A stretch of 63,852 bases of DNA, filler included, from Aduncisulcus paluster (GCA_024181965.1; 11 parts of 11 records of this genome joined end to end with filler, not necessarily neighbours in it), one strand, 5' to 3'. Counted from the whole stretch's first letter, positions 5,853 through 52,505 are shown. Numbers and translations are program-made. Notes: a model not told the origin generated them from the letters alone.

Positions 5853-7290
5853 AAGAATAAATTCTACAACTATACTAGGATGCCTGCCTACATTCTTACG
5901 AATAATATGATCATTAACAGGGTTCACTAAAATATGGTTTGCCATATTCATTAAATATGAAAAGACAAAATTAATCTTTTACTGCCCGTACTGAGCAACG
6001 TATCATCATAGAAACTTCCCAATATCCAGTGTTTAAATGGTTCGGTTTAGCACTCAAACGAACAAGAAACCAGAGTCGATGTAGATTACTGGAGTGTTTG
6101 GATTATCTTCGGAAACAGCTGGATCGGACAATATCTCATCTCATATAGCTCTTATATCCGGTGAATTATGCTACTCTAAGAGATGGAGTGTCCAACATCA
6201 CCATAGTTGAGTCAACAACATAAAGCAGGATTATTACGTCACTTGGAAAAGAAACTAAGGATTCACTAACTCTCAACAGAGAATTTAAAACAAAAAAATC
6301 TAAAACAAATGATATTGCAAAATCAAACAAGCTCTGGAGTGGGAAACTAGGAATCAGACAAGTATAGTCATCTACCAGGGAATTCACAACATTCACAGAT
6401 TAAACCCAAAACTTATCATCAAACAATAAAACTTTACAATGCAATATGTGAACAAAATTCGGGACTTAGGAAACGATTTTGTGTCAGGAGTGGAATGACA
6501 GGATTGGTACCCAATATATATTAAAAATTAAAATATCATATTCTTTTATTAATATGTTATGTGATATTACTTTCAATTCTTGTTTAGTATGGTTTTGGTG
6601 TTTTCTCCTCAGCTCTTCTCGCTTTGAATATATCTCAGAAATATATGTATGTCAGAAATCCAATATCATACGCATTATTATATATTTTATCCATTATTAT
6701 TCAATATTACTCACTCGTTGTATTATTTTGTTCTTGTCCTCATTTCCTCCTTGAAATTCACTTCATGTTCGATGATTGTGGTGACATTCTTTGTTAAAAT
6801 TATTTTTATTATCGTTTTATCATTGTTCGTGTTCTCATCATAGATATTTTAGAACACAATGGATCCAAAACCAACCTCAGAACGTAGCCACGATATTGTA
6901 TGTTTCTGAAAGTTTTTGAATTTATACATTTTATGATGTTTGATATCATTAATTTGAAAAATAATNNNNNNNNNNNNNNNNNNNNGTTCGATGATTGTGG
7001 TGACATTCTTTGTTAAAATTATTTTTATTATCGTTTTATCATTGTTCGTGTTCTCATCATAGATATTTTAGAACACAATGGATCCAAAACCAACCTCAGA
7101 ACGTAGCCAAGATATTGTATGTTTCTGAAAGTTTTTGAATTTATACATTTTATGATGTTTGATATCATTAATTTGAAAAATAATGCCCATATTGCTTTCA
7201 TAACCCCTTTTCTGTTTCGGGTGTTTTTTATTGCTTTATTTCCACTAAATTCTCAATTAAATTTGTCAGATTCAAGAAGTTAAACCAGTG
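5853..7290 (+). repeat. Segmental duplication copy 1: upstream region, exon 1 and intron of a repeat-domain gene
   Basis: 5853-5876, 6007-~6520 and ~6727-7290 closely match 16757-16780, 16786-~17300 and ~17812-18150. Confidence 0.9.
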
Positions 7291-10123
7291 TTTATTCATG
7301 AAGGTGACGAATCTAGCTCTCCAATTCCTCGAGATTGCCCGAATATTAAGAGTCCTGATATAACTGCTATCGAGTCCAAGAATAGGACCAAGAGAAAAGG
7401 TGATAGAGAATATGATCAGTGTTCTGCAGCACAAAAGATGATGAAAGGAGAGGGTAATCGGGGAAAATTTACAGATATCTCCCTTCCTTTCTCCACATCT
7501 ACCCCCATTAAAGGTGCTTGTATTTGTATTGGAAGAGAATATGTCCTATCATCCATTTCTGACTCACAGCCTAAACACCTTATCTTCTCTTTTACATCTT
7601 CAAAGGGGGAGAAAATGGTTAAAAAATATGATTTTACTGAATTAAAAAAAAACAAGCTGGTTCTATCTCCCTATTGATCTCTCTGATGTTGTTCTGTGTG
7701 AGATTTCAGGGAAAGGAAGAAAGAAAGAGTCTTTTGAAATCGAATCCCTCATATTTTTTCGAGAAGAAACACATGAAGAAACTATATTTCGTGAAGCCAA
7801 AGAAGCTTTTCGAAACAAACTCTGGTCTGACGCTCCAGTTGTGAAACCAGAGTTTGTTAAGGAAGGAGATAGAAAATCTCAAGGTAGAGAATCTATTCCC
7901 ATTCCACGAGATGATCCAAAGCTTGTAGATCCTTCATTCTCAATGGTTAAGGGGAAGGATGATTCGAAGAGTAAGGAATCTGAGGGGTATGATCAGAGTT
8001 CAAGAGCACAAAGAATGTTAAAAGGGGAGTGGTTTGTATCCTTATCCCATCTTTCCATTCCTTTCTCATCACCTAGTCCTATGAAAGGTGCTTATATCTG
8101 TGTGAGTGACTATGGCTGTTCACCCTCTCTTCTCTTCACTTTCACTGATTGTGATGGTAAGAAGATATTCAAAAAGTATGAATTCACAAGACCTAAATAT
8201 AAATGTGAATGGCACTTCCTTCCTATTGATCTGGATAATGTTGTATTGTGCGAGATTGAAGGGAAAGGAATGTGGAAAGAGAAGAATAGTCGATGTTTCT
8301 GTATCTTCTCCCTTGTTTTCTTTCGAGATGATGATAAGCTTACAAGCCATACTCAAATCGTAGAACCAGAGTTTATCCATGACGATGAGTATTATGATAG
8401 TTCTCCAGTTAAATGGGATTCCCCCAATATTCAAAGTACATACTTTTCAAAAATTCAAGCAATAGATGGAACCTGCGCAGAAGATTCAAGGTATCATTAT
8501 CAAAGTTATAATGCACAAAAGATGATGAAAGGAAAGAAGCATCATGGATCATTCACACATATTTCCATTCCTTTCTCTTTATCTTCCCCGATTAAAGGGG
8601 CATATACCTTTTTGGGCGGTATTATCCCTCCTTCATACCTTATCTTTACTTTTACTTCATCGAAAGGTGAAAGAACACCTAAGAGATATGATTTTCCTCG
8701 AACATACAGTTATAGTTGGTATTTCCTTCCTATTGATCTCTCTGATGTTGTTCTGTGTGAGATTACAGGTAAAAGAAGTGAGGAAGAGTCTTTTAAGAAG
8801 AAAGATAATTTTAACATCCGCTTCTTGGTTTTCTGTCGAAAAAAAATGAGTTTAATCTCTCAAATCGTGACCCCAGAGTTTGTTCATGAAGGAGATGAAT
8901 ATTGCTGTCCAGTTTCTCAAGAAGCTCCAAACATCAAGAGGGTAGATTTTTCATCTATTGATGCTCTAGTATCTGTCAGACCTAAAGATGAATCTTTGGG
9001 ACAACTCGTGATGAAAGGTGAAGGAAAGTTTAAAAGATTTGATTGGATTAACATTCCTTTCCTTTCATCTTCCCCAATGAAAGGTGCTTATATATGTCTC
9101 TCTCGAGATAGATCTGATTCACTCCCTTCACATCTATTATTCACTCTTACCTCTTCAACTGGTGAGAAAACTGGAAAGAAATACAATTTTCCAGAATTTG
9201 AAGGTTATCATTGGTATTTCCTTCCCATTGATCTCTCTGATGTTGTTTTGTGTAGAATTAAAGGGAAAGATAGGGGAGAAGATGAGTTTTCAATCCTCTC
9301 CCTTGTTTTTATTCGAAAAGAAACCCATGAGGAAACTATATTTCGTGAAGCCAAAGAATCTTTTCGAAACAAACTATGGTCTGAAGCTCCAGTTGTGAAA
9401 CCAGAGTTTGTTCAGGAAGGAGATAGAGATTCTATTCCTATTCCACGAGATGATACAGAGCTTGTAGATCCTTCATTCTCTATTGTTAAGGGCAAGAATG
9501 ATGCGTTTAGTAAGGAATCTGAGGAGTATGATCAGAGTTCACAAGCACAAAAAATGTTAAAAGGGGAATGTGGTGTATGGTTATCCCATCTTTCCATTCC
9601 TTTCCCATCACCAAATCCTTTGAAAGGTGCTTATATCTGTGTGAATGTGGTTGATAGTTCACCCTCTCTTCTCTTCACTTTCACTGATTGTGATGGTAAG
9701 AAGACATGCAAGAAGTATGAATTCACAAGACCTAAACATAGATTTGAATGGCACTTCCTTCCTATTGAATTAGATAATATTGTATCGTGTGAGATTGAAG
9801 GGAAAGGAATTTGGGGTTGGTGGAAGAGGAACAATAGCCGAAGTTTCAAAATAGATTCCCTTGTTTTTACTGTCATTCCAAAAGAAATTGCTGCAGCTGA
9901 ACGATTATCGCTATTTCCATGGAGATATGGTTTGAAGAAGCGTCGAGATTTCTCCATCGCCCCTCTTGTTATTGCTAACCCTGACGAAATTCCTCATCTT
10001 GTTAAAGAAAAAAAATTCTTTTTTTATTCTCGCCACATTTCTATGATGTGGCAGAATCCCTTGTATTTACTGCACAAAAAGAAAAAAATATCTAATCCTG
10101 AAAGGAAGGTAGAAGAAGAATAG
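7078..10123 (+). CDS. Protein of five tandem ~165-aa beta-rich repeats (putative DOC/APC10-like), no kinase. Exon 1 7078-7116, intron 7117-7269, +1 frameshift in an A9 run at ~7644-7652 (pseudogene or homopolymer error)
   Basis: MDPKPTSERSQDI|IQEVKPVFIHEGD joins across a GTATGT..CAG intron. The consensus PEF..EGD..PIPRD..HxSIPF.SSSPMKGAYIC..FTFT..GKK..KKYEF..W(Y/H)FLPIDL..VVLCEI.GKG occurs 5 times. Confidence 0.8.
7117..7269 (+). other. Spliceosomal intron, 153 nt, phase 0
   Basis: GTATGT donor, AT/pyrimidine-rich body, TCAG acceptor. Splicing restores the frame, and the intron is conserved in the paralog at 17979-18130. Confidence 0.85.
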
Positions 10124-10157
10124 TCGAAGTTTTTGTATTGAATTGATTCCCTGTTGT

Positions 10158-13100
10158 TTATTGAGAGTTTGCCAAATGAAACAATAAGAAACTATACATT
10201 TCAAGAGAGTATTTTCCATATTTTTCCTCGATTTGAGCGAGATTCATTGATGAAAATTCTTGCATCATTCCAGATCTTTCGACAAGGACCTGAGCCTCCA
10301 TGGAAAGAGATTCAAGGAAATCTTTCTTCGCCAAGTTAGTCTTTCCATCAAATTCACTTGAAATAAATGAATACAAAGACTCTGACAAACCACATGTATC
10401 TGGTGTTTGTTCTTCTTCTTCCTCTTCTTCTTCCTCTTCCTCTCTCTGAGCTGAGGTTGCATTTTCATTATTATCAGTAATCAGAGCTTGTGTAATGTCA
10501 GTTCCATGACATTGTCCTTCCTGTTGCTGATCTATAGGATGAGTATCATGAGCTTCGTGATTAGCTGAATAAGACGAGCTAGAAACAGAAGATGTTGAGT
10601 CTTCATCCTCTTCTCGGAGTTCTTCTAAATGTTGCTGCTCAACATGCTCAACTGAGTCTGCCTCAAGTCTTGCGACAGATTCTTGAGATGGCAAGAGAAG
10701 GGAAGGTTTCTGTACAAGAGAATCGTCTTTGTTTGTCTCACTGATAATATTTTCATCATGGTGGGAAGAAGAGGAATAAGATGTGGAAGAATCGGATTCT
10801 GATTTCTCATCTTGTTCACGAGCTTTTTCTTGTTCATGACCCATTTCGGTCGTCTTTTTCTCTTCGTGATCACCACTGCCTCCTCCTGGAGAATCAACAC
10901 CAAAGGTATTGTCAAACAAACTCCTTCCGCTCGTTGGACCTTTCTTCTCAGTTTTTGACCCTCCCCCAAAAATACCGATATTCCCATTGTCAGACACATT
11001 GAACGCGCTCAAAGATGCTCCAGTAGATCCTTGAGAATACTGTGTAAATCCATTTTCCCTTAATTTTTTTCTAATTTCTTCCTTTTCTTCTTCTTCTAGA
11101 TCAATTTCACTTAATCCAAAACCAGTCTCTGGAGCACCGAAGAGAGAAGATGAACTGTGGGTCCCAAAAATGCTAGCATCATCATTTCCCCCTCTTATTT
11201 CATGAGTTTCTCCAAATAGACCTAATCCTTGACCAAAACTAGAAACATTCACAGACCCGTCTTCTTCCCATAGTTTTTTTCTAATTTCTTCTTCTTCTTC
11301 CTCTTCTTCCTCTTCCTTTTCTTCTTCCTTTTCTTCTTCCTTTTCTTCTTCTTCTAGATCAATTTCTCTAAATAGATCATAACCAGTCTTTGGAGGAGGA
11401 GCACCGAAGAGAGAAGATGAACCGTGGGTCCCAAAAATGCCAGCATCATCATTTCCCCCTCTTATTTCATGAGTTTCTCCAAATAGACTTAATCCTTGAC
11501 CAAAACTAGAAACATTCACAGACCCGTCTTCTTCCCATAGTTTTTTTCTAATTTCTTCTTCCTCTTCCTTTTNNNNNNNNNNNNNNNNNNNNAGAATCAA
11601 CACCAAAGGTATTGTCAAACAAACTCCTTCCGCTCGTTGGACCTTTCTTCTCAGTTTTTGACCCTCCCCCAAAAATACCGATATTCCCATTGTCAGACAC
11701 ATTGAACGCGCTCAAAGATGCTCCAGTAGATCCTTGAGAATACTGTGTAAATCCATTTTCCCTTAATTTTTTTCTAATTTCTTCCTTTTCTTCTTCTTCT
11801 AGATCAATTTCACTTAATCCAAAACCAGTCTCTGGAGCACCGAAGAGAGAAGATGAACTGTGGGTCCCAAAAATGCCAGCATCATCATTTCCCCCTCTTA
11901 TTTCATGAGTTTCTCCAAATAGACTTAATCCTTGACCAAAACTAGAAACATTCACAGACCCGTCTTCTTCCCATAGTTTTTTTCTAATTTCTTCTTCCTC
12001 TTCCTTTTCTTCTTCTTCCTTTCTTTTCTCTCCAGAAAGATTGTCAATATCTCCCACCTGTTGTTCTTTCTCATGTTGTTCTTTCTCCGGAGTACATGAA
12101 TTACACGAGAAAAGAGGCAAAGGAACACCTTCAGTGGAAGAAATGGGAGCCGGATCAATTGAGTCAGTATTTAGACCCTTGGGATTAGACTCAGTGTAGA
12201 TATCATTCTCTTCAGAAGATTCAATAACAGAGTCGTCATCTTCTTCCTTTTGAGAATGTTCTAAATTTAGATCCATGGGACGAATTGGAGCAGAGCTGAC
12301 TGGACCATCTTCTTGTTCATTTTGTTGTTGTTGAGAATCAGTTTGTTCATGAACTATACAATCGTTTGTTTGATTAGGCCCTTCAAGACCTTTTTGAATC
12401 TCTCCTTCTTCTTCGTCGTATGAAGAGTGAATAGTTTCAGAAGTTTCTTCCTCAGCATTTTGAATCTCTTCTCTTTCCTTCTCTTCTCTTTCCTCCTCTT
12501 CTCTCTTCTTCTTTTCTTCTTCTTCTCTCCTCTTTCTTTCCTCTTCTTCCTTTTCTCTCCTCTTTCTCTCTTCTTCTTCTACTTCTAGACGTCTCTTCTC
12601 CATTCTCTTCTCGTCCTCTATTCTCTTTTCTTCATCAATCAACCTCTGCCAATTCTCAAAGCTTACAGAAACACGCTCTCCTCGTGGTCTGCAATCGATC
12701 TTCCCTTTGTCAAACTTTGAGTACCAAACCTCCATGTTTTCTTGGATGGTCAACATTCTTACGGCATCCACAATACATATATTGAAGGAGTTTTCATGAT
12801 AATAGAAGTAACGCTCTTGTCTACCTCCCTGAATAGTCTCAAATGGAGATTCTGATAAGGAGAGATCTTGCTCAATGATCTTAGAGTACTTGGATGGGCT
12901 GTCAAAGTCGATAATGCACCTACGATCGATATCGTGTCCGTGATTAAAACATCGTTGCACATCATCAAGAGTTCCATACATATTTATGCATAATCTGCAG
13001 CTTTTATCGATGTCTGATTCATATGGGTACCATCTCTTGAGATCTCTAGACTGGCAAAGACCAGAAACTTTATCAAGAGGATAGAATTCATTTGAATCGA

Positions 13101-14347: not shown

Positions 14348-16444
14348 TTACAGCTCCTTTTCTGGAATTATTCCTTTATGAGGGCATTTTGACTGCAGCA
14401 ACTCAGTAAGATTAGCAAAATAAGTGCGCTGTTTCTTCAATGTTGCATAATCATTCTCAATTGAAGCCCTTTCGCTCTGGAGGACCTTCAATGTTTGCTC
14501 CCTTCCAGCGATGGATTGTGAAAGATTCTGAACAAGATCTGAAGTGTATCCTTCACAAACATTTTTATAGGCCTTCTCACATAGAATTTGACATTCGGTC
14601 TCATGGATATCACTCTTTAGTTCTTCGACATCCCTATGACCAGTGACGACCTGTTCAACAAGATGCCCACCATAACCAACACTTCTCATACTTCTGACTT
14701 CATCCTCAAGGGCTTTGGCCTCAGCACGGGTCTCTTTCACGGCCTGTGCTCTTGGTTTCATTGCCTCTTTCTTGGCCAAGATTGTCTCGTGAAGCTCAGT
14801 CACAATTTCTCTCATTTCAACAGGGATATCATAAGCCAGCAATCCTGGACTCCTAATTCCTGCGTCAAGATCGAGAGCACTGCTTTCGCGAATCTCTTTA
14901 ATCTCTTGTGCATAATGCTCAAGTTTCTTCTCAGTCTCTGATAGGACAGCGTGTTCACGACGCAAGCGCTCGAGAACTTTCTTTTTCTGATCGACCTGTT
15001 GCTTATTATCTTTCAAGACCAAGGCACAATGCTGGAATTCATACATGGCATTCTCACTTGACGATTGGACAAGCTTTTCGTCCAGCTCTTTTATAGCTTC
15101 CTGTCTCTTCTTCCATTTCTTCTGGGCTTCCTTGAGATGTCTGGTCAAAGCATCAACAGAATCTTGAAGTTCAGAAGAACCTGAAGAGGAAGAGGAGGAA
15201 AAAGATGTGCTCCTACGGGCATCACTCTTTCCAGAAGATGCTGAGAGTTTCTTTGTCAACTCTCGCTCTCTCTCTCTCTCTTCCTCTTCAATCTCTTTTT
15301 TGACTCTTTCTAATTCTTCTTCTTTCTCACGCAGCATGACGTGGAGGTTACCAGGGTTTGTAACTGTGCTCACAGTGTATTTATAGATACCATGGTCATC
15401 TGAACTGCAATCCATGGATCCAGGGCCTGAGGAAGAGGTCACACCAGATACACCAATGGTCGTTGCAGCGGCAGCCATCTGAAGCCTTTCTTTCACACAG
15501 AGCACATCACGAACATTCTCAGGAAGTTCAGGAATAGACTTGCCATCAGAAACTGCATTAGCACTGATCAAAGCATACGATAAGGCCAGAGTTGAAGGCA
15601 TTGTGTCATTAACAGAACGTTTAAGAGCTGTGCATTCACTCTCAGCAGTAGATATTAGGTGTTTGAGAGACTTCTCGCCCCCTTTGAAGGAACTGGCTCT
15701 ATGAATACGGTCTAACTCACCTTTTAATTCTGTTTCTCGCTTCTTTTCATCCTCAAGAAGAGCTTCTTGTTCGGCCAATGTCTTTGAAAGTTCCTCGACT
15801 TGGGAATTCTGAGTGTGGAGGTCACTAATAAGCGGAAGAAGAGAATGGATATCACAACGCTCCCCTAATTCATGGCTAAGCTTATCAACCTTGGCACAGA
15901 GTCCTTCCCTTTCGTCTTCAAGAGCAGAAATATGTTTGGAAACATCAGAAGCTTTTTCGGTGCGTTGACCCCTTTCTTTCTGTAGATATTGATACGCTTG
16001 TTGAAATTCATGTTGTAATTCAGATAATTCACCCAGTAAAGTCTTGATGGAAGGGTCTAGTTGGTGCTCTTGGGGAATCGCCAAAGGAATAGTGTACCTG
16101 GCAATATAAGCCCGTTCTTTTAGGCCCTTAATATCTCTTAAAACGAATGCAAGAATATTTTGAATGGTTTCAGGATCCGATTTCTTTAATTTTTCAAAAA
16201 AATCGGCCCCCGACCCACTTACTTGATAATTTAAATTTTTAAGAAGGCCTAGTAGTGAGTGGATCACATGATCGAAAGTCCACTCTCTACTTGGCTTGAA
16301 ATCGGGAGATACCTCCCCCAACACTTCAACAAGAAGGCTAAGGGCGGAATCTCCGGATTTCATCACATCTTGGAAAGATATTATTGTAAATCTCTTTCCA
16401 AGATGCGAATTGAGCAAGGATATTATCTCGGGAATTGTTAGCAT
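14348..16444 (-). CDS. IFT81: Intraflagellar transport protein 81
   Basis: N-terminal CH-like region (EIISLLN..FTIISF..LSLLVEVLGEVSP..LLGLLKNLNY..LKERAYIARYTIPLAIPQE) matches the IFT81 pattern and is followed by long coiled coils. Confidence 0.85.
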   Translation of the reverse strand: MLTIPEIISLLNSHLGKRFTIISFQDVMKSGDSALSLLVEVLGEVSPDFKPSREWTFDHVIHSLLGLLKNLNYQVSGSGADFFEKLKKSDPETIQNILAFVLRDIKGLKERAYIARYTIPLAIPQEHQLDPSIKTLLGELSELQHEFQQAYQYLQKERGQRTEKASDVSKHISALEDEREGLCAKVDKLSHELGERCDIHSLLPLISDLHTQNSQVEELSKTLAEQEALLEDEKKRETELKGELDRIHRASSFKGGEKSLKHLISTAESECTALKRSVNDTMPSTLALSYALISANAVSDGKSIPELPENVRDVLCVKERLQMAAAATTIGVSGVTSSSGPGSMDCSSDDHGIYKYTVSTVTNPGNLHVMLREKEEELERVKKEIEEEERERERELTKKLSASSGKSDARRSTSFSSSSSSGSSELQDSVDALTRHLKEAQKKWKKRQEAIKELDEKLVQSSSENAMYEFQHCALVLKDNKQQVDQKKKVLERLRREHAVLSETEKKLEHYAQEIKEIRESSALDLDAGIRSPGLLAYDIPVEMREIVTELHETILAKKEAMKPRAQAVKETRAEAKALEDEVRSMRSVGYGGHLVEQVVTGHRDVEELKSDIHETECQILCEKAYKNVCEGYTSDLVQNLSQSIAGREQTLKVLQSERASIENDYATLKKQRTYFANLTELLQSKCPHKGIIPEKEL

Positions 16445-16756: not shown

Positions 16757-18150
16757 AAGAATAAATTCTACAGTTATACTTCCGACATAGAAACTTCCCA
16801 ATATCCAGTGTCTAAATGGTTCGGTTTAGCACTCAAACGAACAAGAAACCAGAGTCGATGTAGATTACTGGAGTGTTTGGATTATCTTCGGAAACAGCTA
16901 AATCGGACAATATCTCATCTCATATAGCTCTTATATCCGGTGAATTATGCTACTCTAAGAGATGGAGTGTCCAACATCACCATTGTTTGAGTCAACAACA
17001 TAAAGCAGGATTATTACACCACTTGGAAAAGAAACTAAAGATTCAATAACTCTCAACGGAGAATTTAAAACAAAAAAAATCTAAAACAAATGATATTGCA
17101 AAATCAAACAAGCTCTGGAGTGGGAAACTAGGAATCAGACAAGTATAGTCATCTACCAGGGAATTCACAACATTCACAGATTAAACCCAAAACTTATCAT
17201 CAAACAATAAAACTTTACAATGCAATATGTGAACAAAATTCGGGACTTAGGAAACGATTTTGTGTCAGGAGTGGAATGACAAGACTAGTATCCAATATAT
17301 GTTAGAAAGAAACCATTTATATTTTTTTAATCGATATATTCTGCAATGTCATCTTGCATTGTTATTATACAGAGTTTTGAATTCTAAAACTTCATTTCTT
17401 CCTGTTGTAAAAGAAATATTGAAAATATTGTATGTCATAATTTTTCGTTAGTTAGATATTAACTTCTTGTCAATCCATAATCACCATGTTTTATTCACTG
17501 GTTCTCTCGCTGGCTGTTCTTTTTTNNNNNNNNNNNNNNNNNNNNTTTTGTGTCAGGAGTGGAATGACAAGACTAGTATCCAATATATGTTAGAAAGAAA
17601 CCATTTATATTTTTTTAATCGATATATTCTGCAATGTCATCTTGCATTGTTATTATACAGAGTTTTGAATTCTAAAACTTCATTTCTTCCTGTTGTAAAA
17701 GAAATATTGAAAATATTGTATGTCATAATTTTTCGTTAGTTAGATATTAACTTCTTGTCAATCCATAATCACCATGTTTTATTCACTGGTTCTCTCGCTG
17801 GCTGTTCTTTTTTGTTCTTGTCGTCATTTCCTCCTTGAAATTCACTTCATGTTCGATGATTGTGGTGACATTCTTTGTTAAAATTATCATATTGTTTTTA
17901 TTATTGTTCGTGTTCTCATCATAGATATTTTAGAACACAATGGATCCAAAACCAACCTCAGAACGTAGCCAAGATATTGTATGTTTCTGAAAGTTTTCGA
18001 ATTTATACATTTTATGATGTTTGATATCATTAATTTGAAAAATAATGCCCATATTGCTTTCATAACCCCTTTTCTGTTTCGGGTGTTTTTTATTTCTTTA
18101 TTTCAACCAAATGCTCAATTAATTTGTTAGATTCAAGAAGTTAAGCCAGA
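16757..18150 (+). repeat. Segmental duplication copy 2 (upstream region, exon 1, intron)
   Basis: Near-identical to the blocks in 5853-7290. Also contains an artefactual overlap at gap 17526-17545. Confidence 0.9.
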
Positions 18151-21100
18151 GTTTATTCATGAAGGTGACGAATCTAGCCCTCCAATTCCTCGGGATTCCC
18201 CGAATGTTAAGAGTCCTGATATAACTGTTATTGAAGCTAAGAATAGGACCAAGGGAAAAGGTGATAAAGGGTATGATCGGTGTTCTAATGCACAAAAGAT
18301 GATGAAAGGAGAGGAGGTTTATTGGGGATCATTTACATTTACAGATATCTCCCTTCCTTTCTCCACATCTACTCCCATTAAGGGTGCATATATATGTATT
18401 GGAGGAGGATACTATTTCTGTCCACCTTCATACCTTATCTTCTCACTTACATCTTCAAAGGGGGAGAAAATGTTTAAAAAATATGAATTTCCTGAATTAG
18501 AAAATGATAGCTGGTTCTTTCTTCCTATTGATCTCTCTGATGTTATTCTATGTGAAATTACAGGGAAAGGAAGAAAGAAAGAGTATTTTGCAATCGACTC
18601 CCTTTTTTTCATAAGTAGAGAAGAAATACCTGAAGAAATCAAAGCTTGTGAAGCTAGAGAGAAACTATGGTCTGAAGCTCCAGTTGTGAAACCAGAGTTT
18701 GTTAAGGAAGGAATTATAAATTCTATTCCCATTTCATGTGATGATCCAAATGTTATAGATCCTTCATTCTCAAAGGTTAAGGGCAAGAATGATACGTTTA
18801 GTAAGGAATCTGAGGAGTATGATCAGAGTTCAGCTGCACAAAAAATGTTAAAAGGGGAATGGGATGGACGCTTTGTGCGGTTATCCCATCTTTCCATCCC
18901 TTTCCCATCAGAATTATTGGTATTGTAAGGAATCTGAGGAGTATGACCAAAGTGAAGAAGCTCAAAGAATGTTGAAAGGTGAAGGAGAAGTGACATTATC
19001 CCATCTTTCCATCCCTTTCCCATCACCTAGTCCAATGAAAGGTGCTTATATCTGTGTGGATAAGGATTCTAGTTCACCCTCTCTTCTCTTCACTTTTACT
19101 GATTGTGATGGCAAGAAGACACGCAAGAAGTATGAATTCACAGAATCTAAAAATAGATATGAATGGCACTTCCTTCTTATTGATTTAGATAATGTTGTAT
19201 TGTGTGAGATTGAAGGGAAAGGAAGGTGGAGATGGAAGAATAGTCGAAGTTTTGCAATCAATTCTTTAGTTTTCCTCCAACAACATATTTTTTTTGGAAA
19301 TGTTGAATATATCTATAAGGGAGACTTTGAATGCATTCCAATCCCTCGAGATGATCCAACATTTATCGGTCCAGATTTTACTGCAATCAAAGCAATAGAG
19401 AAACAAAAAGAAGAATATGAGGATATGAGCAATTCTGCCCAAACGATGATGAAAGGAGAGTTTGGTCGTTTTAAGTTTTTTCATATTTCCATTCCTTTCA
19501 AATCGTCAACATCTATAAAATGTGCCTATATCTGTTTATCATCTCGTAAGTCTCCATCTCTTACATTCACATTCACTTCTTCAAATGGAAACAAAATGTC
19601 ATATTTATATAAATTTGATGAGTTTTCCGAATCTCTATATTGTTGGTTTAAGCTTTCTATTTATCTCTCTGATGTTGTTTCATGTGATATCAAAAGAGAT
19701 GAAGAAGAAAGGGAGAATTTTGATATTTCTTCCCTTGCTTTTTATCGAGAAGATACTTCTGATGAATATATTGCTCGAGAAAAACAAAGAATATATCTTG
19801 AAGAACTCTGGTTGAAATCCTCACCTGTGAAACCAATGTCTGTAACCGAAGAATTTGTAGATTCCCTTGATGATACCTCAATCATAAATCCTTCATTTTC
19901 AATGGTTAAGGGAAAGAATGATGTATATTGTAAGGAATCTGAGAAGTATGATCGGAGTTCAAGAGCACAAAGAATGTTAAAGGGGGAATGTAGTGAAAAG
20001 GCTCAAAAAATGTTGAAAGTGAAATGTGATGTACGGTTATCCCATCTTTCCATCCCTTTCCCATCACCTAGTCCTATGAAAGGTGCTTATATCTGTGTGA
20101 ATAAGAATGCTAGTCATACGTTGTATAGTTCACCATCTCTTCTCTTCACTTTCACTCTTTCGAATGGAAAGAAGATATCCAAGAAGTATGAAGTCACAGA
20201 AATTAAACTTGAATATGACCCAGAAGATCTACATAAATCTGAATATTACTTCTTTCTTCCTATTGATCTTCCAAAGGTTATTATCTGTGAGATTCAAGGA
20301 AAAGGGACATGGAAAGACCGGTTGAGTCGAAGTTTCCAAATGACATCCCTCATTTTCATTAAAGGTGAAGACATTCCTCCCCTTCCTTCAGATTCCACCA
20401 AGCTTATCAAACATGACTCTTTCACTCTCACTTCCTCTGCAACCATCACTCCTCAGTGCATCATTGGTCATGGTGGATTTGGTGAAGTTCTTCTTGTTAA
20501 AGTTGAAGGTATTCCTATTCCTTGTGTTCTGAAGAAAATGCTCCGTGAAGCTGATGAAAAAGTTGTTAAAGAATGTCGACATGAGTTCAAGATGCAACGA
20601 AAGTTATTTAACAATCCAAAATGTTTCAATCGTATCCCTCGTCCTTTGTATATCCTTGACCTGCTTGATGCAGATATGAAAGGAGTATATGGATTTATCA
20701 TGGAATATTGTGCTGGAGGTAGTGTGAGTGCATTTGCTAGAAGTTGGTGTGATGATGGCAAGTATGTGAGTGATATTGGTGATGCTGATGATAGCTGTGA
20801 TTATGATATTGACATAACTCATATTGACCCCATGAGACTTAACCCTGTGAAAGTATGTTCTCTCTGTGTTGGAATGATTGAGTGTCTCGATGATGTGTTA
20901 AGAGCAAAGAAGAGTCTTGTCCATCGAGATGTCAAACCAGATAACTTCCTTGTTCGTGTTGATCATGATTCGAAGAAATGCACCATCGTTCTCTCTGATC
21001 TTGGAATGGTTCAAATCTTAGATTCCATCTCTTCTTCAGCATCTTCCAAATCAGCTACACATCCAATCCTGAGTGAAAAGAAAGAAAAGACCTCAAAACC

Positions 21101-23038
21101 AAGGAATTCCAGATGTGGAACTCTTGTGTATAATTCGTATGAAACTCTTTGTGAGGGGAGACAGACTCAAAAGAGTGATGGATATTCTCTTGGAATGTCG
21201 ATTCTTTCGTTATTCTTATGTGAGCATCCTTTCACTTCTTTACCCAAATTCAGTGAGGTTTATAGGAAAGTTTGTATGGGAGAAGCTGATGATTTTGATC
21301 TTATGAAATTATTAAAGCGGTTAGTGGAAAATGATATGTGTCAACGTCTATCTCGATCTCCTTTGTTTAAGTCCTTGTTAACTATTGAAGATGGGAAATA
21401 TAAACCTGTTCATGTATGTTTGAATGAAATATTCACAGGTCTCACTAGACTAGACAAAGATGAACGTATGAGTGTTCATGAAGCTCGCAAGAAGGTGCAA
21501 AGCATCAAAGATTTATTGCCAAAGATTGTACTGCCACAAATTGGAGAAGGGTTTATATGTCCATCCATTGAGGATATTATTGAACGTCAGCTTGCAGAGT
21601 ATGACGGGAATGCTGGAATCATTGAAGAGGTAAAGGAAGATGAGAGTGAAAAATCTGGACCTATAAAGGAAATACGAGCCACAGATATGGATAGTTCTGA
21701 TATTCATCCCTTTCCTAAAGCTATAAGTATTCCCATACCTAGCTCAGTTTCCACAAAAGTTGAAGATGAATTGGAATGTGAGAAATATCAAAAAGAGGAA
21801 ATTTCATCTGGGGCTGTCATAAATCGGTTATGTAGGCTTGGAAGTGGTGGATTTAGTGAAGTCTTTCTTGTTACAGTTAATGATATCCCTTTGCCATGCG
21901 TTCTAAAGAAATTTAGACGAAAAAACCAGGAAGCTATTGAACGCGTGAAAAAGAGATGCAAAATGGAGTTTGATTGGCAAAACAAATTATTCCTCGATTC
22001 TGAATGTCTCCACCGTATACCACGTCCATTGTATATCCTTGATACGCATTCAGAGTATCAAGGATTTATCATGGAATATTGTGCTGGAGGTAGTGTTAAA
22101 GATTTTGCTGCACAACTCATATTGATCCCATGACACTGAACCCAGTGAAAGTGAGTGCTCTCTGTGTTGGCATGATTGAGTGTCTTGATGATGTGTTTAG
22201 AGCAAAGAAGAGTCTTGTTCATCGAGATGTCAAACCAGACAACTTCCTTGTTCGTGTTGATCATGATCCCCAAGATGGAAATTGCACTGTTGTTCTTTCT
22301 GACTTTGGATTTGTGAAAAGTCAAGAAAATATACGATGTTCCAGATGCGGCACATTTGTTTACAATTCATATGAAGCTCTTCAAGGTTTCCACTCCCAAA
22401 AGAGTGATGGATATTCTCTTGGAATGTCGATTCTTTCGTTATTCTTATGTGAGCAACCTTTCACTTCATTGCCCATCTACAGAGAGGTTTATAGGAAAGT
22501 TTGTATGGGAGAAGCTGATGATTTTGATCTTATGAAATTATTAAAGCGGTTAGTGGAAAATGATATGTGTCAACGCCTATCTCGATCTTCTTTGTTTCAG
22601 TCCTTGTTAACTATTGAAGATGGGAAATATAAACCTGTTCATGCATGTTTGAATGAAGTATTCACAGGTCTCACCAAAAAAGATGAAGATGAACGTATGA
22701 GTGTTCATGAAGCTCGAAAGAAAGTGCAATCCATCAAAGATTTATTGCCAAAAATCAGCACGAAATGTCCACAACTAGATGATATTATTTTCTATTATCG
22801 TCAGATTTACCCTTCTTCAAAATTCATTAGAGATATCAAGGATGATAAAAGTACTATGAAAAAAGGAATTCCTTTAAGCTCAACAAAAACAACTCAATCT
22901 GAAATGGAGAAGTGGAGAAGCGATGGAAATCAATTAATTCCTTTAAGTTCAACTTATACCATAGGGACTAGTAGCGGAAGTAATACAGGAACTGAACTTC
23001 AAAGTACAGAGAAAGATACTAGAGATGTCCCTCGATAA
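17940..23038 (+). pseudogene. Four DOC/APC10-like repeats plus two tandem kinase domains. Intron 17979-18130; frame breaks at ~18910-18930 and ~22110-22130
   Basis: Same exon 1 as the 7078 gene. Kinase 1 has GHGGFGEV/CVLKK/HRDVKPDNF/DLG. Kinase 2 has GSGGFSEV, then a frameshift, then HRDVKPDNF/DFG. ORFs 18299-18928, 18864-22133 and 22130-23038 are colinear pieces. Confidence 0.7.
17979..18130 (+). other. Spliceosomal intron, 152 nt, phase 0
   Basis: GTATGT..TTAG. Exon 2 (ATT CAA GAA GTT AAG CCA GAG..) is in frame with ORF 18299. Confidence 0.85.
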
Positions 23039-24024
23039 TCTATTCCATTTACATGTCTTCCTATATAATCTGAGAAAGAACAGGATGAACCTTTTGCAGT
23101 TTCGTTACCCTCAAAAATTCAAAGCACGGAGAAAGAAAATCGTGATATCCCTTCATATCTTCGAGAAAGTCAAGCCTCTCGTAAGGACGTAGGGATGATA
23201 AAAAGATTCATACTTCACAAACTTCCACATCAATTTCAACAATCCAAAGTTCTGTGGGTGATCACAGGGATATGATGTCATTTACTGTTGATATTGATAG
23301 TCAAGGTCAAAGGATAATCAAACCAAAGGAAAAGGAAGTGGATTCTACAGTGGAATAATCAACAATGTTGATTCAATATTCTACAAGTGAAGATCATGAC
23401 ATGTGGAGACAGACATCAAAAAATAAACAACAACTCAAACACTAATGAGTTCCAAACACCATGAGTTACGACTAACACAAACGTTCTTTTGTCAGATTCA
23501 GATTTAATTTGATGAGAGATTCTTTGTTATAAAAACACCAAAGTCTGAAAATCTTCACTAAATTTCAAGAGAGACGAAACAAATTGAGATATCTTCGAAT
23601 CCACCTTTCACTTAATTTTGGTTGCTTTCTTGATCGAGTTGCTTTATCGGAGTTTTATGTCTAAAATGGCATTGATGTTGTAAAATACCATTCGATGAAC
23701 ACTTTATACAAAACATCCTTGAATTCCAATCGAAATATCATTTGCAGAAGAAATATCCTTACTAAGTGTATTTAATGGCTAAGAAATTTCTGAAACAAGC
23801 TGAGCATTAACATAAATCAATTTCTTTATCTTCTTTTTTTATAGGAAGTTCCTATATAATCTGTAAATATTTGTTTGAATAAAGAATCCTATCTGTTCCT
23901 TCTCTTCAGCTTCCTCACTTAGGTCAACGTTTCCAACTGAAAAGAGAGCCAAGAAAGTGGTCATGTTGGAAATATTTGAATTAATTTTTTCTCAGGAAAT
24001 CAAAATATAAGAAAACAAAACATT

Positions 24025-25058: not shown

Positions 25059-25158
25059 NNNNNNNNNNNNNNNNNNNNNNNNNNNNNNNNNNNNNNNNNN
25101 NNTTAATTAATTAANNNNNNNNNNNNNNNNNNNNNNNNNNNNNNNNNNNNNNNNNNNN

Positions 25159-34523: not shown

Positions 34524-35337
34524 AATACCAGATCTACTGGTTCATTTCACCCAATATCTTAAATTCTCACCTTGCATTATTGCGACTAATCTCACATATT
34601 GACCATCAATAATGCTAACAAGCAAATTAATTAATGGGAGGAAACCGGTATTACCGGTTGGTACCGGTTTACATTTGAAATGTAGAACACAAGTAAATAT
34701 TTTCATTGTTTTATTCTTGACAAGCTCCCTGACTTGTTTAAAAAGAAATTTTGTTAGCTGTTCTACAGAATTTATGCTTGGAGCAAATTTACTATTTTGA
34801 AATAAAATATAAATTCCCAGTTTTTGGATTTGAAACCAAACCGGAACCAAAAAAATAAAACATTCTTAATCCTTAAATATAATAAGATGATAACTTCAAA
34901 ATCAGAGTGTCCCACCAAAAAATGACATCTTCGATCTTCTGATAAATATAAAAAAATAAATGAATGAATATAGTTGTTAATAAATTAAGTAAAATAATTG
35001 TTAAAAATGTAAGTTATAAATGAATAAAAACCTTAGCAATTGCGAAGAAATAAAAAACAGAATAAAACAGATTTTCCAACAATTGAAACACCATGCATTC
35101 ATCTATATTACCAGAAGGTTTCATTTATCGAATTATTAATGAGAAATTTAACGGAGAAACGGTGTTTCAGAAACTTTCAAAATCAATCCAGATTTCCCAA
35201 GATTATCTCATCTCACATATTCAGGATTTTCTTAAGTNNNNNNNNNNNNNNNNNNNNNNNNNNNNNNNNNNNNNNNNNNNNTTAATTAATTAANNNNNNN
35301 NNNNNNNNNNNNNNNNNNNNNNNNNNNNNNNNNNNNN

Positions 35338-38561: not shown

Positions 38562-38763
38562 GGATGAGGGAAGATTNNNNNNNNNNNNNNNNNNNNNNNN
38601 NNNNNNNNNNNNNNNNNNNNTTAATTAATTAANNNNNNNNNNNNNNNNNNNNNNNNNNNNNNNNNNNNNNNNNNNNTCACCACTCTAACAAGATTATCCC
38701 ATTAGTTTAAACAATTTGATAATGACAATGTTTTCCTCCTTTTGATTGACTTCTTCCTCTTTT

Positions 38764-40744: not shown

Positions 40745-40844
40745 NNNNNNNNNNNNNNNNNNNNNNNNNNNNNNNNNNNNNNNNNNNNTTAATTAATTAA
40801 NNNNNNNNNNNNNNNNNNNNNNNNNNNNNNNNNNNNNNNNNNNN

Positions 40845-42333: not shown

Positions 42334-43419
42334 TTATTTTTTATCCTTTTCCCTATCCTTCTTGTCTTTAACCTTTCCACTGAATTCCTTGTAAATGTAT
42401 TCTCTGTATGTACTAACGGAGAACTTCACATCATCATCGATAAAGATTTGAACTGGCTTAGGCATCACAGGCTCGTCGGATGAGTGGAATTTGGCAATGT
42501 AAGGGTGCTTCAAGGCATCATCAGCAGAAATACGCTTATCGGGATCAAAAACCAATAACTTGGCTAAGAGGTCAAGCCCGTCGGGAGGAGCTCCAGGAAG
42601 CACGTGTTCCAACTTCCTACGTTTCACACTTGGAAGACCTTCAAGCATGGAGGCAAGGAAAGGAGAACCGACACCCTCAATATCGGCAGGGCTCGGGAAT
42701 CCAGTTACCTCGATGATTCTTTCCAATTGCTTCAAAGTGGAAGATGAAGAAGAGGTAAACATGGGTTTTCCCTTGAGGAGTTCTCCCAAGATACATCCGA
42801 CGGCCCACATGTCAACACCATAGGTATATTTTGTGCTTCCGACAAGAATTTCGGGAGCACGATACCATCTGGTGGCAACATAATCGGTTAAAACTGGGTT
42901 GGCATCGGATTCCTTGTCAAAACCTTCCAAACAACGGGCGAGACCAAAATCACCAAGTTTGACGTGGCAATCAGCGTTTAAGAAAAGATTCGAAGGTTTA
43001 AGATCTCTATGAATGAGTTTACCAGAGTGGAGATACTTTAAGGACCGAAGTAACTGGTAAACAACGTAACGAATATGAACATCTTGAAGAATATTAGCAC
43101 GGATGGCAGCATGAAGATCAGTGTCTAAATATTCAAAAACAAGATACAAATCCTTGTCATTTTGGGCAGGAATAACTTCAAAAAGTTTAACGACATTTTC
43201 ATGGTGGATTTGGCGGAGGAACATCACTTCTCTGAATGTTCTCTGAGCATCAGTCGCATTTCTGAATGCGTCGAAAATCTTCTTTAAAGCAACGGTTTGT
43301 TTCGTGGCTCTATCAACGGCCTTATATACCACACCATAAGCTCCTTTTCCAATACGGCGAACGAGCTTAAACTTTTTTAATATGTGGGGTTCGACGTCAG
43401 ATTGACTACTTGAAGACAT
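42334..43419 (-). CDS. MAPK15: Atypical MAP kinase ERK7/MAPK15 family
   Basis: GKGAYG, VALKKIFDAFRNATDAQRTFRE, HRDLKPSN, TDY activation loop (LTDYVATRWYRAPE). Confidence 0.92.
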   Translation of the reverse strand: MSSSSQSDVEPHILKKFKLVRRIGKGAYGVVYKAVDRATKQTVALKKIFDAFRNATDAQRTFREVMFLRQIHHENVVKLFEVIPAQNDKDLYLVFEYLDTDLHAAIRANILQDVHIRYVVYQLLRSLKYLHSGKLIHRDLKPSNLFLNADCHVKLGDFGLARCLEGFDKESDANPVLTDYVATRWYRAPEILVGSTKYTYGVDMWAVGCILGELLKGKPMFTSSSSSTLKQLERIIEVTGFPSPADIEGVGSPFLASMLEGLPSVKRRKLEHVLPGAPPDGLDLLAKLLVFDPDKRISADDALKHPYIAKFHSSDEPVMPKPVQIFIDDDVKFSVSTYREYIYKEFSGKVKDKKDREKDKK

Positions 43420-47600: not shown

Positions 47601-48118
47601 TTTACTTCGTGGATCAACATGCTGCTGATGAAGCCTTCAACTTTGAGGATCTTTGTGCCCGAATAACCCATCCCAGGAAGATGCATATTCAGACGTTGGT
47701 TGTTCCTATCTGTGTCCCAATGAGCATGAGCGATGAAGTCGTTGCCTTGGAGTGGCTTGGAACGTTGGAACCTGACAAATGCAGCGATGGGAAGAAAGAG
47801 TCCCTGTTGCCTCCACAACCTCACGAAGTGCAGAATCCATTCTCTCTCCTTGGATTTGACGTGAAGTATGATGAGACAAGACCGCCTGGGAAGAGAGTGA
47901 TGCTGCATGCTGTGCCCGTTGTGTGTGGCCATATCTGCGGTATTCAGGACGTTCGTGAGATCGTCAGTGCCATTTCCCAGTCGTCTGCAGTCGTTGGTGA
48001 GACTCCTCTTTCCTCTTTGTTTTCATTTCCTATCTATGAAAAGGGAGTCGAGGATACTTCTCTCCAACGATCAGTGGGTGACAAAGGTGACAAAGGTGAC
48101 GATGGGAGGAAACAGCAC
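44605..48118 (+). CDS. PMS2: MutL homolog PMS2 (yeast Pms1) type, 3'-truncated; duplicated overlap at gap 45205-45224
   Basis: GHKL motifs AVKELIDNAIDA, DNGRGI, TSK, TLGFRGEAL, LPVRR. C-terminal QFN..FIV and endonuclease motif DQHAADEAFNFE (DQHA-X2-E-X4-E). Confidence 0.88.
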
Positions 48119-48819
48119 NNNNNNNNNNNNNNNNNNNNNNNNNNNNNNNNNNNNNNNNNNNNTTAATTAATTAANNNNNNNNNNNNNNNNNNNNNNNNNN
48201 NNNNNNNNNNNNNNNNNNTAGTCATTTTCATCTTAATACACACTATATTTTTTATCACACTTCTATATTACCTTAGATAATTTTTTTCGACCTTGATGAT
48301 GTTCCTTGTGATGCATTTATTAACCAACTTTTTTTCATTTCATCATTTAAGACCAGTTTTATAAGTATTTTATTAAGCTCCATTTTCATATTATTTTATT
48401 AAGAGCTGATAATCATTATTATTATTCCGTCTCACCCTTAAGAACAAATAAAATAATATTATGATGAATATAATTTTTTTTGGATTTTTACTATGTTTTA
48501 TTGTGTTTAATAAATATCATTTTTTGATTTGATGATGTTGTATATATGTCTTTGTATGAGACAGTTTGATTTTTTTAATTTAAGATATTTTTATTTTTTC
48601 TTGGTTTTCATTGTTATTATAACGTTTTTTTTGTTCTGATACTTGTTGATGATATTATTTGATGATGATTCATTTTTCCAGTGAGCTGAGAGGCATCAAG
48701 GTTCTTAATTTAAGCTAAATTATTTTTAATGGTCTTTTTTAATCTTTTTTTATTGGTATTTTATCTTAATTTATTCATTTTTTTCCAATATTGGATAATG
48801 GTTGAGTTCACAGTGTCAT

Positions 48820-49640: not shown

Positions 49641-50767
49641 GAGCCTCTCGATCTGAGATCGATAGATGAGTGTAAAACTAAATAAAAAATATATTAGACA
49701 TATTATACCATATAAAATAAACTAAAAAATTAAACAAACCTTATTGTACGTTACGAAAAAACTATGCTGCCCAGATGAAATATGTGATACTAAACATATT
49801 TCCCCTTTACCAAGACATTTTCTTAATAAAAAGAAATTAATATCTTAAATTTTTATTTTGTTTCTTTATAACACTTTTTGTTCGCTTAGTACAAATAATT
49901 ATCGTTTCTCATCCTATGATGGACCAATATGTGTTATTAATAAATAAATTTATTTTTTGAAATCTACTCCCGGAGTAGACCTCGAAAACGGTATCCATTT
50001 CCCTTAAATCGCAGGTCGGTGTTTTCAGTTCGCACAAGGGGGAACGGATCTATGCCAGCCGATGGTTTCTCATTGATTTAAGCATAATAAACTTTATTAA
50101 CGCGAAATCTGAAAACCTATTGCATAATCCGGGAGATACAGTGATTATCTTTTAAATGGATAATATGAAATTTTTTGAGCTTATATTCTGCAGTAAAATC
50201 CTTTTTTAATGTTTATTCTTTTTTTAAAATTTTAATATCTTCATGTTAATCATATGATCTTGGAAAATAATGATCATCACAAAATGGTCAGGATTGGGTC
50301 AGAATAAAACAGCATAAAACCGGAAAAGACCGATATATATCCCATTAAAATCCATGGGAGATGCTGATACTTAAATTAAGAAATATTTTTTTTTTATTTT
50401 ACCCGATATATAANNNNNNNNNNNNNNNNNNNNNNNNNNNNNNNNNNNNNNNNNNNNTTAATTAATTAANNNNNNNNNNNNNNNNNNNNNNNNNNNNNNN
50501 NNNNNNNNNNNNNAATGAAAATAAAACATGTTTTTATCATTTACCAGCATTTAACTCGTTTATATGTGTTTTATAAATTTTCCAATCTTATCTATTGAAG
50601 GGTTGCTTGTTCAGTCCTCCATTTTTTCTCGTCGTACAAGCAAATTGTATGTTTACTATATGTCATATCTTTTATTAAATGTATATTAAGAAATATTTTA
50701 ACCGGATTCATTCATTATTCTGCTTGTTTTTATTATTTTTTAGATAAGAAATTCTATCTCTATTCAA

Positions 50768-52505
50768 ATGAGTTCATCCACAGATGCTGTTATTCAAACT
50801 GTAGAACCTGAGTTTGTTCATGAAGGAGAATACTCTTGTTGTCCAATTCCTAGAGATGCCCCCAATATTAAGAGTGCAGCATTTCCAACTATCAAAGCAA
50901 TAGATGGAACCAAGGAAGAAGGAGATGAATACTACGATCAGAGTTCTTATGCACAAAAGATGATGAAAGGAGAGTATAATGTTGGACATTTTACCCATAT
51001 CTCCATTCCTTTCTCTTCATCTTCCTCAATGAAAGGGGCTTATATTTGTCTAAATGATGAATTTTTACTCCCATCACATCTTATCTTCACTCTCACATCT
51101 TCAAAGGGTGATAAAACATCCAAGAAATACGAATTTCCTGAATTTAAAGGTCATCATTGGTATTTCCTTCCTGTTGATCTCCCTGATGTTGTTCTGTGTG
51201 AGATTACAGGGAAAGGAAGAGAGGAAGAGTATTTTAGAATCGACTCCCTTGATTTCATTAGTAGAGAAGAAACTCCTGAAGAAATCAAATCTCGTGAAGC
51301 CAGAGAGAAACTATGGTCTGAAGCTCCAGTTGTGAAACCAGAGTTTGTTAAGGAAGGAGATAAAGAATCTAAAGGTAGAGATTCTATTCCCATTCCACGA
51401 GATGATCCAAAGCTTGTAGATCCTTCATTCTCAATTGTTAAGTGCAAGAATGATGCATTTAGTAAGGAATCTGTGTGTTATGATCAGAGTTCAGATGCAC
51501 AAGAAATGTTAAAAGGGGAAGATTATGTATCCTTATCCGACTGTTATGTAGAACCACCCCATCTGTGGTGGAGCTTTTTTTCCCTGACACATCTTTCCAT
51601 TCCTTTCCCATCACCTAGTCCAATGAAAGGTGCTTATATCTGTGTGATTAAGGATTATAGTTCACCCTCTCTTCTCTTCACTTTCACTGATTGTGATGGT
51701 AAGAAGACATTCAAGAAGTATGAATTCACAAGACCTAAACATCATTTTGAATGGCACTTCCTTCCTATTGATTTGAATAACGTTGTATTGTGTGAGATTG
51801 AAGGGAAAGGAATGTGGAAGTGGAAGAATGATAGAAGTTTCAACATCTACTCCCTTGTTTTCCTTCGAGGTGATGATATTCCCACCTCTCCTCCTCTTCT
51901 TACTCCTGTTTCTGTTCCTTCCATTTCCTCAAAGACACCCACATCAACTCTGTCTTTGCCATCAAAACCTGTGAAAGAAGAAGCTGTGAAAGAAGCTGTG
52001 AAAGAGGAAGAAGAAGAAAAGACAGAATCTCGGGAAAAGAAAGATATTCCTTCAAGATCAAAACAACAAACAGAATCACTCACTCAAGAAACAAAGACAT
52101 CTGAACCTACCAAATCCAACCCAAACCAACCAACTTCTTCTACTCCTTCTCAACACCCCATTCCTGTCCCACTCCCTCAGACCTTGACTTCCTCCTGTAC
52201 CATTACTCCTCTTTGTATCATTGGGAAAGGTGGGTTCGGTGTTGTTATCCTTGCTCGTGTCGAATACCCTGCTTCATACTGCTCGCCTCCTGTGTTGTGT
52301 GCTCTGAAGTGTATGAAGAACAAAGAGTCATGTGAAGACAATGAGAAATGTGTGAAAGACATGAAGAAAGAATTCTCTCGTCAGCATCGGTTGTATTTCA
52401 AATCATCATTACAAAGCTGTATCCCTCGTCCTCTGCATATGCTTGATCTTCTCGATGGTGATCTGAAAGGAACATTAGGCATCATGATGGAGTTCTGTCA
52501 AGGTG
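50768..52505 (+). CDS. Two DOC/APC10-like repeats + P/S/E-rich linker + kinase N-lobe, 3'-truncated
   Basis: Same repeat consensus as the 7078 and 17940 genes; IIGKGGFGVV, CALKCM, IPRPLHMLDLLD..GIMMEFCQG. Confidence 0.88.

Follow-up and report, generated by a model that had tools for sequence, protein, structure and literature searches.

The DNA considered here is a 63,852-base window (by which we mean the whole stretch that was analysed) from Aduncisulcus paluster, a free-living anaerobic flagellate belonging to the metamonads. The window is eukaryotic, with ~35% G+C, and is a chain of short A. paluster contigs; the contigs are independent, so that distances and gene order across the joints between them carry no meaning. 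Three of its genes encode tandem copies of a repeat of ~155 amino acids (aa), which in two of them are followed by protein kinase domains: gene 1 (ADUPG1_007151), gene 2 (ADUPG1_007154) and gene 3 (ADUPG1_007169). Here, we describe the three genes, the fold and family of the repeat and the variability of four of its loops, which we read, with a probability of roughly 0.6, as binding a protein or glycan target, and in the kinase fusions as thereby localising or regulating the kinase.

Repeats and kinases of the three genes

A hidden Markov model (HMM) of the repeat, built from the nine intact window repeats and run on the six-frame translation of the whole window, finds 11 copies, of which five are in gene 1, four in gene 2, two in gene 3 and none elsewhere. 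These are the counts given by the first-pass annotation of this DNA, and the numbers of kinase domains that it had proposed (none, two and at least one) also agree with what we find: a kinase is absent from gene 1, gene 2 encodes one complete and one interrupted domain, and gene 3 a truncated N-lobe. The three gene starts (7078, 17940 and 50768) are likewise correct. The first two open a 39-nucleotide (nt) exon (MDPKPTSERSQDI) that is followed by a GTATGT...CAG intron, and the third opens gene 3. The suggestion that the three genes form a single locus from 7078 to 52505 has to be given up, as six contig joints fall within this span. A single 21,152-bp contig (window 3907-25058) holds genes 1 and 2, which are ~8 kb apart with three other genes between them, whereas gene 3 is on its own 1,992-bp contig (window 50514-52505) and is therefore not linked to the other two.

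The consensus of the window repeats, ..SIPF..MKGAYIC..PS.L.FT..G.K..KKYEF..W.FLPIDL..VVLCEI.GKG..F.I.SL.F, matches the pattern quoted in the first-pass annotation, and the same SIPF...SL.F consensus is recovered from 386 full-length repeats of 184 database proteins. Two subtypes of the repeat, A and B, can be distinguished.

All repeats and kinase domains of the three genes are on the plus strand. Gene 1 (7078-10123) consists of exon 1 (7078-7116), an intron (7117-7269) and exon 2, which begins at 7270 and runs to the stop at 10123; the database protein P0011 is 100% identical to the translation of 7703-10120. Its five repeats are a type A repeat at 7279-7765, which is broken by a one-base slip in a run of nine A (7644-7652), a type B repeat at 7841-8326 (HMM i-Evalue 3.8e-74), two type A repeats at 8360-8842 (2e-67) and 8867-9319 (7e-63), and a type B repeat at 9395-9871 (6.2e-74). 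The C-terminus (9880-10123) reads ERLSLFPWR in place of the ...ERLSLLPWK end known from other members of the family, and continues for ~70 further codons. The first exon of gene 1 and the sequence upstream of it are present twice, at 6785-6919 and 7004-7138, on the two sides of a 20-N gap (6966-6985), with a third copy of the ATG at 6859; this doubling is probably an assembly artefact of the scaffold gap.

Gene 2 (17940-23387; P0131, 1681 aa) has four repeats and then two kinase domains. It shares with gene 1 a nearly identical first exon, intron and ~300 bp of upstream sequence. The repeats alternate between a type A repeat at 18140-18616 (2.4e-71), a type B repeat at 18686-19280, a type A-like repeat at 19299-19751 (4.5e-64) and a type B repeat at 19827-20363 (7.9e-59), the last lying directly upstream of the kinase. 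The second repeat is interrupted by a frame-shifting 124-nt tandem duplication, with copies from 18803 and 18927 (span 18803-19050), that covers the helix and the first variable loop; the two copies differ in loop sequence (EWDGRFVR and EGEVT). In the fourth repeat, the AQ.MLK helix is duplicated internally on a smaller scale, and these sequences suggest a tendency of the first variable loop to duplicate locally. The complete kinase 1 is at 20460-21353. Kinase 2, at approximately 21810-22775, has a frame change near 22110-22125 and is without the acidic insert of kinase 1.

Gene 3 (50768-52505; P0016) is partial, ending at the edge of its contig. It encodes a type A repeat at 50801-51262 and a type B repeat at 51332-51868, the latter with 15 extra aa inserted in loop 1 and disordered in the structural model, then a ~105-aa linker rich in Ser, Thr, Pro and Glu, and from approximately 52175 to 52505 a kinase N-lobe that is truncated by the contig end.

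The complete kinase of gene 2 matches PF00069 with 70 bits (gathering cut-off 31.7) and contains GHGGFGEV, VLKK, HRDVKPDN and DLG motifs. Its best sequence matches in the PDB are DCLK1 and RIPK1, at E ~2e-5. The domain thus reads, by sequence, as a true eukaryotic protein kinase, although a very divergent one, and the description ‘unusual kinase’ is apt, with DLG standing in place of DFG. The HRDVKPDN catalytic loop is of the Ser/Thr type. Among 136 kinase-bearing proteins the HRD.K..N motif is kept in 100, and of these 85 have DLG and two have DFG. All 106 matches to the kinase clade belong to A. paluster, and one of these was taken from an independent transcriptome set for the same strain. 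Giardia NEK kinases are likewise a large, lineage-private kinase expansion in a metamonad; what sets the A. paluster clade apart from them is its coupling to a private variable-loop repeat, which is present in 75 of the 106 clade proteins. A further, distant kinase of this clade (28% identity, E 4e-33) forms the N-terminal part of a 1036-aa protein encoded on another contig (30981-34091, plus strand) and is without repeats; the C-terminal part of that protein has an internal duplication of ~70 aa, with shared words at residues 564/634 and 584/654. The kinase at 42334-43419, an ordinary one, shows hardly any similarity to the repeat-linked clade.

A crude Kyte-Doolittle hydropathy scan detects no signal peptide, hydrophobic N-terminus or transmembrane-like segment in the three window genes, in agreement with the first-pass annotation; the maximum means over 19 aa are 1.16, 1.43 and 1.75, the last falling in the glycine loop of the kinase. 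On inspection, hydrophobic stretches across the family lie mostly in the kinase or in strands of the repeat. The repeat proteins are therefore predicted to be cytosolic. A start with MG is seen in 33 of 302 Met-starting proteins, 20 of which fit a myristoylation-like pattern (e.g. P0194, MGCSSSK; P0188, MGGCQSA; P0252, MGVSSSS), some with a Cys at position 3 or 4, and this hints that a minority of members may be anchored to the cytosolic face of a membrane.

Fold, relatives and family of the repeat

Sequence searches place the repeat in no described family. Over the repeat region of the three translated open reading frames (ORFs; P0001-P0003) no Pfam family is matched at E <= 1, neither PF03256 nor PF00754, the 34 single repeats compared with Pfam yield only six unrelated families, each in one member, and no PDB sequence match is found for the repeat even at E <= 10. 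For structure prediction with AlphaFold2, a single repeat (the first of gene 3) was used with an alignment of 34 sequences, comprising window repeats and divergent single-domain relatives. The resulting model (pLDDT 96.4, pTM 0.90) is an all-beta sandwich with one short helix. Foldseek against the PDB returns BF3416 (1.1e-4), APC10 (5.9e-4) and CBM32 (7.7e-4), with probability 1.00 and TM-scores of 0.5-0.58, and a wide search with VIA-align gives 81 chains at Z >= 8, headed by the CBM32 of ZmpB (Z 12.3), the HECTD3 DOC domain (11.9), IFT25 (11.7), APC10 (11.6), an F5/8 type C domain (11.5), the muskelin discoidin domain (11.4) and the HERC2 DOC domain (11.2). The top families overlap 117-143 of the 155 residues of the model, and the structural matches share 2-14% sequence identity with it. 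At the level of fold, the repeat as modelled is a galactose-binding-domain-like jelly roll. Discoidin clusters also lie near the repeat in the ESM atlas, at 0.90-0.93, which is a weak lead.

The first-pass annotation had called the repeat DOC/APC10-like, from a line-up with APC10 made by eye. The jelly-roll fold of the superfamily that includes APC10/DOC is confirmed by the model and by both structural searches, and to that extent the line-up was right, but structural alignments give only 8-14% identity and the name is not specific, as CBM32, HECTD3 DOC, IFT25, APC10, F5/8C and muskelin are tied within one Z unit. DOC is thus not preferable to discoidin or CBM32 as the relative of the repeat. 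This bears on the idea that the repeats are DOC domains in the strict sense: degron or substrate adaptors of APC10 type, serving ubiquitin ligases, which have been duplicated and fused to kinases. The DOC domains of APC10/Doc1, HECTD3, HERC2 and CUL7 are among the top matches (Z 11.1-11.9, 117-143 residues aligned at 2.6-3.2 Å), the alignments with APC10/Doc1 take in the extension at the N-terminus (residues 1-155 and 3-155 of the model), unlike most CBM32 rows, and DOC domains are intracellular recognition modules that stand beside an enzyme, as the A. paluster repeats appear to do. On the other hand, CBM32, IFT25 and F5/8C score equally well (Z 11.5-12.3), identity to DOC domains is 8-12%, PF03256 is not among the matches of the 34 repeats or the three ORFs, and HECT, cullin and RING families are absent from the precomputed Pfam columns of the listed family proteins. 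The repeats also occur in tandem, with hypervariable loops and with kinase rather than ubiquitin-ligase partners, and we consider true DOC domains very unlikely.

Discoidin (F5/8C) and CBM32 domains are the best or tied-best structural matches and, like the repeat, are found as tandem didomains (ZmpB CBM32-1/2, neuropilin b1b2, factor VIII C1C2). In these families, ligands bind loops at one end of the sandwich. In contrast to the A. paluster proteins, in which neither a signal peptide nor a PF00754 match is detected, they are mostly secreted or extracellular. The way in which two repeats pack also differs: a model of an A-B didomain (pLDDT 89.2, pTM 0.85) has a conserved helical linker at residues 170-185 and an arrangement unlike that of known tandem discoidin or CBM32 pairs (TM ~0.26 by Foldseek). 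A discoidin-fold domain N-terminal to a kinase is known from DDR1/2, and DDR1 (4ag4) is among the Foldseek matches. DDR1/2 are, however, tyrosine kinases that span the membrane and have a single discoidin domain outside the cell, unlike the A. paluster proteins with their tandem repeats, their HRDVKPDN motif and no detected transmembrane segment.

How far the family extends was assessed in protein databases, and all counts are lower bounds. A word-seeded search gave 199 proteins at E <= 1e-3 with lengths of 319-1017 aa (120 of 120 among the matches listed are from A. paluster), an exhaustive search with a profile against 1.84 billion representatives gave 165 clusters at 50% identity (the best 150 of the 165 being listed), of which 20 of 20 looked up among the weakest listed matches are from A. 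paluster, and a search for longer proteins gave 104 matches, all from A. paluster. Among the named matches, then, the repeat is seen only in this species. Of 338 fetched proteins, at least 307 contain the repeat, with at least 794 repeat domains in total, and 105 contain both repeat and kinase, so that the family is as expanded and modular as had been proposed. Proteins have between 1 and 13 repeats. AB, in 87 proteins, and AB-kinase, in 38, are the architectures seen most often, the first element is of type A in 226 of 327 cases, and the element directly before the kinase is of type B in 92 of 100. The ...ERLSLLPWK C-terminus is found in 47 of the 338 proteins, mostly stand-alone AB forms, with P0031 and P0034 as examples. 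Adjacent locus tags on a shared contig (e.g. ADUPG1_007773, 007774 and 007775) suggest that family members form local tandem clusters. Partner domains include Pkinase, thioredoxin, nitroreductase, MSP and LRR, and there are odd fusions with an ABC transporter, a fidgetin-like AAA domain and chromo/integrase domains. NACHT/STAND matches in P0332 proved to be the P-loop of an ABC transporter and are not NLR-like, and for the ‘NudC domain’ names that appear in UniRef, Pfam gave no such match for P0015.

A family of two jelly rolls in ~365 aa, as in the stand-alone form, and of high copy number brings to mind a capsid-like double jelly roll derived from a virus or transposon, and a few gene models do adjoin retroelement domains (P0076; also P0324 in a precomputed list). 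The repeat number of 1-13, the fusion to kinases and the ordinary housekeeping genes found as neighbours speak against this, and we regard such an origin as extremely improbable. A Foldseek search with the didomain model returned, among the best 50 rows per library, tandem discoidin/CBM32 domains, cupins, tail proteins and galactose-binding domains, and no major capsid protein.

Both the fold and the placing of a binding domain beside a kinase are already known; what appears to be new is the sequence family, with its scale, its A-B grammar and the private kinase clade that it is coupled to. In this deep-branching, free-living relative of Giardia, no fewer than 307 of the 15,316 predicted proteins, or at least 2%, belong to the family, and it is invisible to sequence annotation, the repeat-only members being named hypothetical or uncharacterized. 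In the literature searched, we found no paper that describes it. The genome announcement, which reports 29.4 Mb in 25,863 contigs with an N50 of 4.6 kb and 15,316 predicted proteins, does not mention it either (PMC9933649). The repeat is a candidate for a new domain family entry, with a rigid scaffold, four fast-changing loops and a fixed A-B-kinase grammar, and, given the confidence of its model (pLDDT 96), it could be of use as a natural scaffold for binders. It may also serve as a test case for the ways in which diversified recognition repertoires arise in unicellular eukaryotes and targeting modules are acquired by kinases. This significance is tempered by the draft state of a single genome.

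Variable loops and the possible functions of the family

In the 386 full-length repeats, insertions and deletions (indels) concentrate after HMM columns 61, 87, 115 and 139 and at one site in an N-terminal coil, and the intervening turns are conserved with almost no indels. Entropy peaks in these four loops, with more than 3.2 bits in columns 59-63, 85-88 and 117-118, and is below 1 bit at framework columns, and each loop occurs in 304-319 distinct sequences. Four hypervariable loops on a nearly invariant framework, as noted in the first-pass annotation, are thus confirmed in these repeats. Taken in strand order, every second connection is one of the four loops, which should therefore share one end of the jelly roll, as judged from the alternation of strands in the DSSP string of the model.

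The ratio of nonsynonymous to synonymous substitution (dN/dS, or omega) was calculated by the Nei-Gojobori method for nine of the 11 window repeats, two with frame breaks being left out. It is 1.57 in type B and 1.07 in type A for the four loops, compared with 0.68 and 0.31 for the strands and 0.40 and 0.35 for the turns at the opposite end. Of 500 equal-sized column sets drawn at random, one reaches the loop value for type B, and of 500 for type A none does; loop omega is above 1 in six of six type B pairs. dN/dS sets the loops sharply apart from the rest of the domain, and positive selection is not proven by it.

In the model that we favour, the working unit would be the A-B didomain, that is, the two repeat subtypes joined by the conserved helix. 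Each domain would keep a rigid beta-sandwich core and vary the four alternate loops at one end, so as to present a diversified surface that binds a protein or a glycan in the cytosol. In about one third of the members, the last B repeat would be connected by a flexible linker to a divergent Ser/Thr kinase with complete catalytic motifs, and binding of the target would bring the kinase to a substrate or location or would regulate its activity. The stand-alone A-B form with the ...ERLSLLPWK tail, the commonest, may act as a kinase-less adaptor or competitor.

Several points weigh against this model. The loop face, the binding, the ligand and the coupling to the kinase are steps that we infer, and two of the ‘strands’ in the DSSP string, of 20-22 residues, must bend or turn if the one-end logic is to apply. 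The richness in aromatic residues that the first-pass annotation had ascribed to the loops is present but slight (13-19% F+W+Y, against 12% in the framework). The dN/dS values come from ~23 aligned loop codons and from 6 and 10 non-independent paralogue pairs, with loops that were picked partly for their variability, a loop ratio near 1 fits relaxed constraint as well as positive selection, and the pooled ratio of 0.65 for the type B framework does not indicate strong constraint. The odd fusions listed above are probably merged gene models and not real architectures. As regards expression, none of 10 clusters (those of the three window genes and of seven stand-alone AB proteins) contains a member from an independent transcriptome; transcriptome-derived EukProt entries are found in two of 10 divergent clusters looked up and for one kinase, and one public sequencing run, which is RNA by guess only, contains 0.35 of the sampled gene 2 words. 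Finally, two of the three window genes (genes 1 and 2) carry frame breaks, three in all (in the first repeat of gene 1, in the second repeat of gene 2 and in kinase 2). The short ‘introns’ of the public gene models bridge these breaks, and the one in the first repeat of gene 1 deletes three strands. The frame breaks may be errors of a repeat-rich short-read assembly or real decay.

The frame breaks lead to the main rival of the binding model, which is a fast-duplicating and partly decaying structural or scaffolding family whose loops are merely unconstrained and take no part in diversified recognition. It would also account for a loop omega in type A that is about neutral and for the ratio of the type B framework. 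The near-identity of the 5' regions of genes 1 and 2, which points to a recent segmental duplication, and the retroelement domains that adjoin some members (chromo/integrase in P0076 and, in the precomputed list, PF00078 in P0324) fit it as well. Against it stand the turns at the opposite end, which are constrained and almost free of indels, the type B loop ratio above 1 in every pair, the retention of the catalytic loop in 100 of 136 kinase-bearing proteins and of the order A, then B, then kinase, and the long open frames of 825 and 1093 codons that persist. We think it unlikely that the family is merely a decaying one.

A narrower form of the binding model holds that the targets are non-self: the proteins would be germline-encoded cytosolic sensors of bacterial prey, intracellular bacteria or viruses, with the kinase fusions as the signalling arm, by analogy with lectin receptor kinases, ALPK1 and NLRs. 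Such an immune-like repertoire would be in keeping with the size of the family relative to the proteome, the difference in dN/dS between loops (1.07-1.57) and strands (0.31-0.68), the tandem clusters suggested by locus tags and the restriction to one species. It would also suit the diet of A. paluster, which feeds on bacteria (PMC9933649). A partial precedent is provided by the discoidins of Dictyostelium, which are cytosolic lectins with a discoidin-fold domain in a bacterivorous protist and which, in the available part of a recent report, are described as sensors of bacterial surface glycans (10.64898/2026.06.18.733164). [quoted passage not shown] In addition, the A. paluster family shows no link to prey or pathogens, no death, TIR or STAND modules are seen in it, and a loop omega near 1 is also expected of neutral loops. 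We hold the immune-like form to be doubtful. The same low expectation attaches to its fullest version, a private germline repertoire of more than 300 cytosolic jelly-roll sensors with apical loops under diversifying selection, about one third of them wired to a private Ser/Thr kinase clade. If true, a bacterivorous metamonad would possess its own intracellular system for pattern recognition and signalling, with an origin separate from those of NLRs, lectin receptor kinases and the immune receptors of animals.

Neighbouring genes and layout of the window

Runs of N in the window are of two kinds, namely 20-N gaps and the ten joints between contigs, each of which consists of 44 N, TTAATTAATTAA and 44 N. 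The joints are at 3807-3906, 25059-25158, 35238-35337, 38577-38676, 40745-40844, 48119-48218, 50414-50513, 52506-52605, 57731-57830 and 60911-61010. The pieces that they bound at 3907-25058 and 50514-52505 agree in length with the contigs on record for the proteins of genes 1 and 2 (21,152 bp) and of gene 3 (1,992 bp).

The gene neighbours are ordinary housekeeping genes, encoding a PP1-type phosphatase, IFT81, MutL, SBDS, a prenyltransferase and a UCH hydrolase. The IFT81 homologue, an ordinary flagellar gene, lies between genes 1 and 2 on the minus strand (14348-16444) and encodes a calponin-homology domain (E 7e-14). An ORF at 10158-11702, also on the minus strand, has an internally duplicated unit of ~90 aa, with runs of Glu and LFG, IFG and SLFG motifs, and its product could be an FG-repeat, nucleoporin-like protein.

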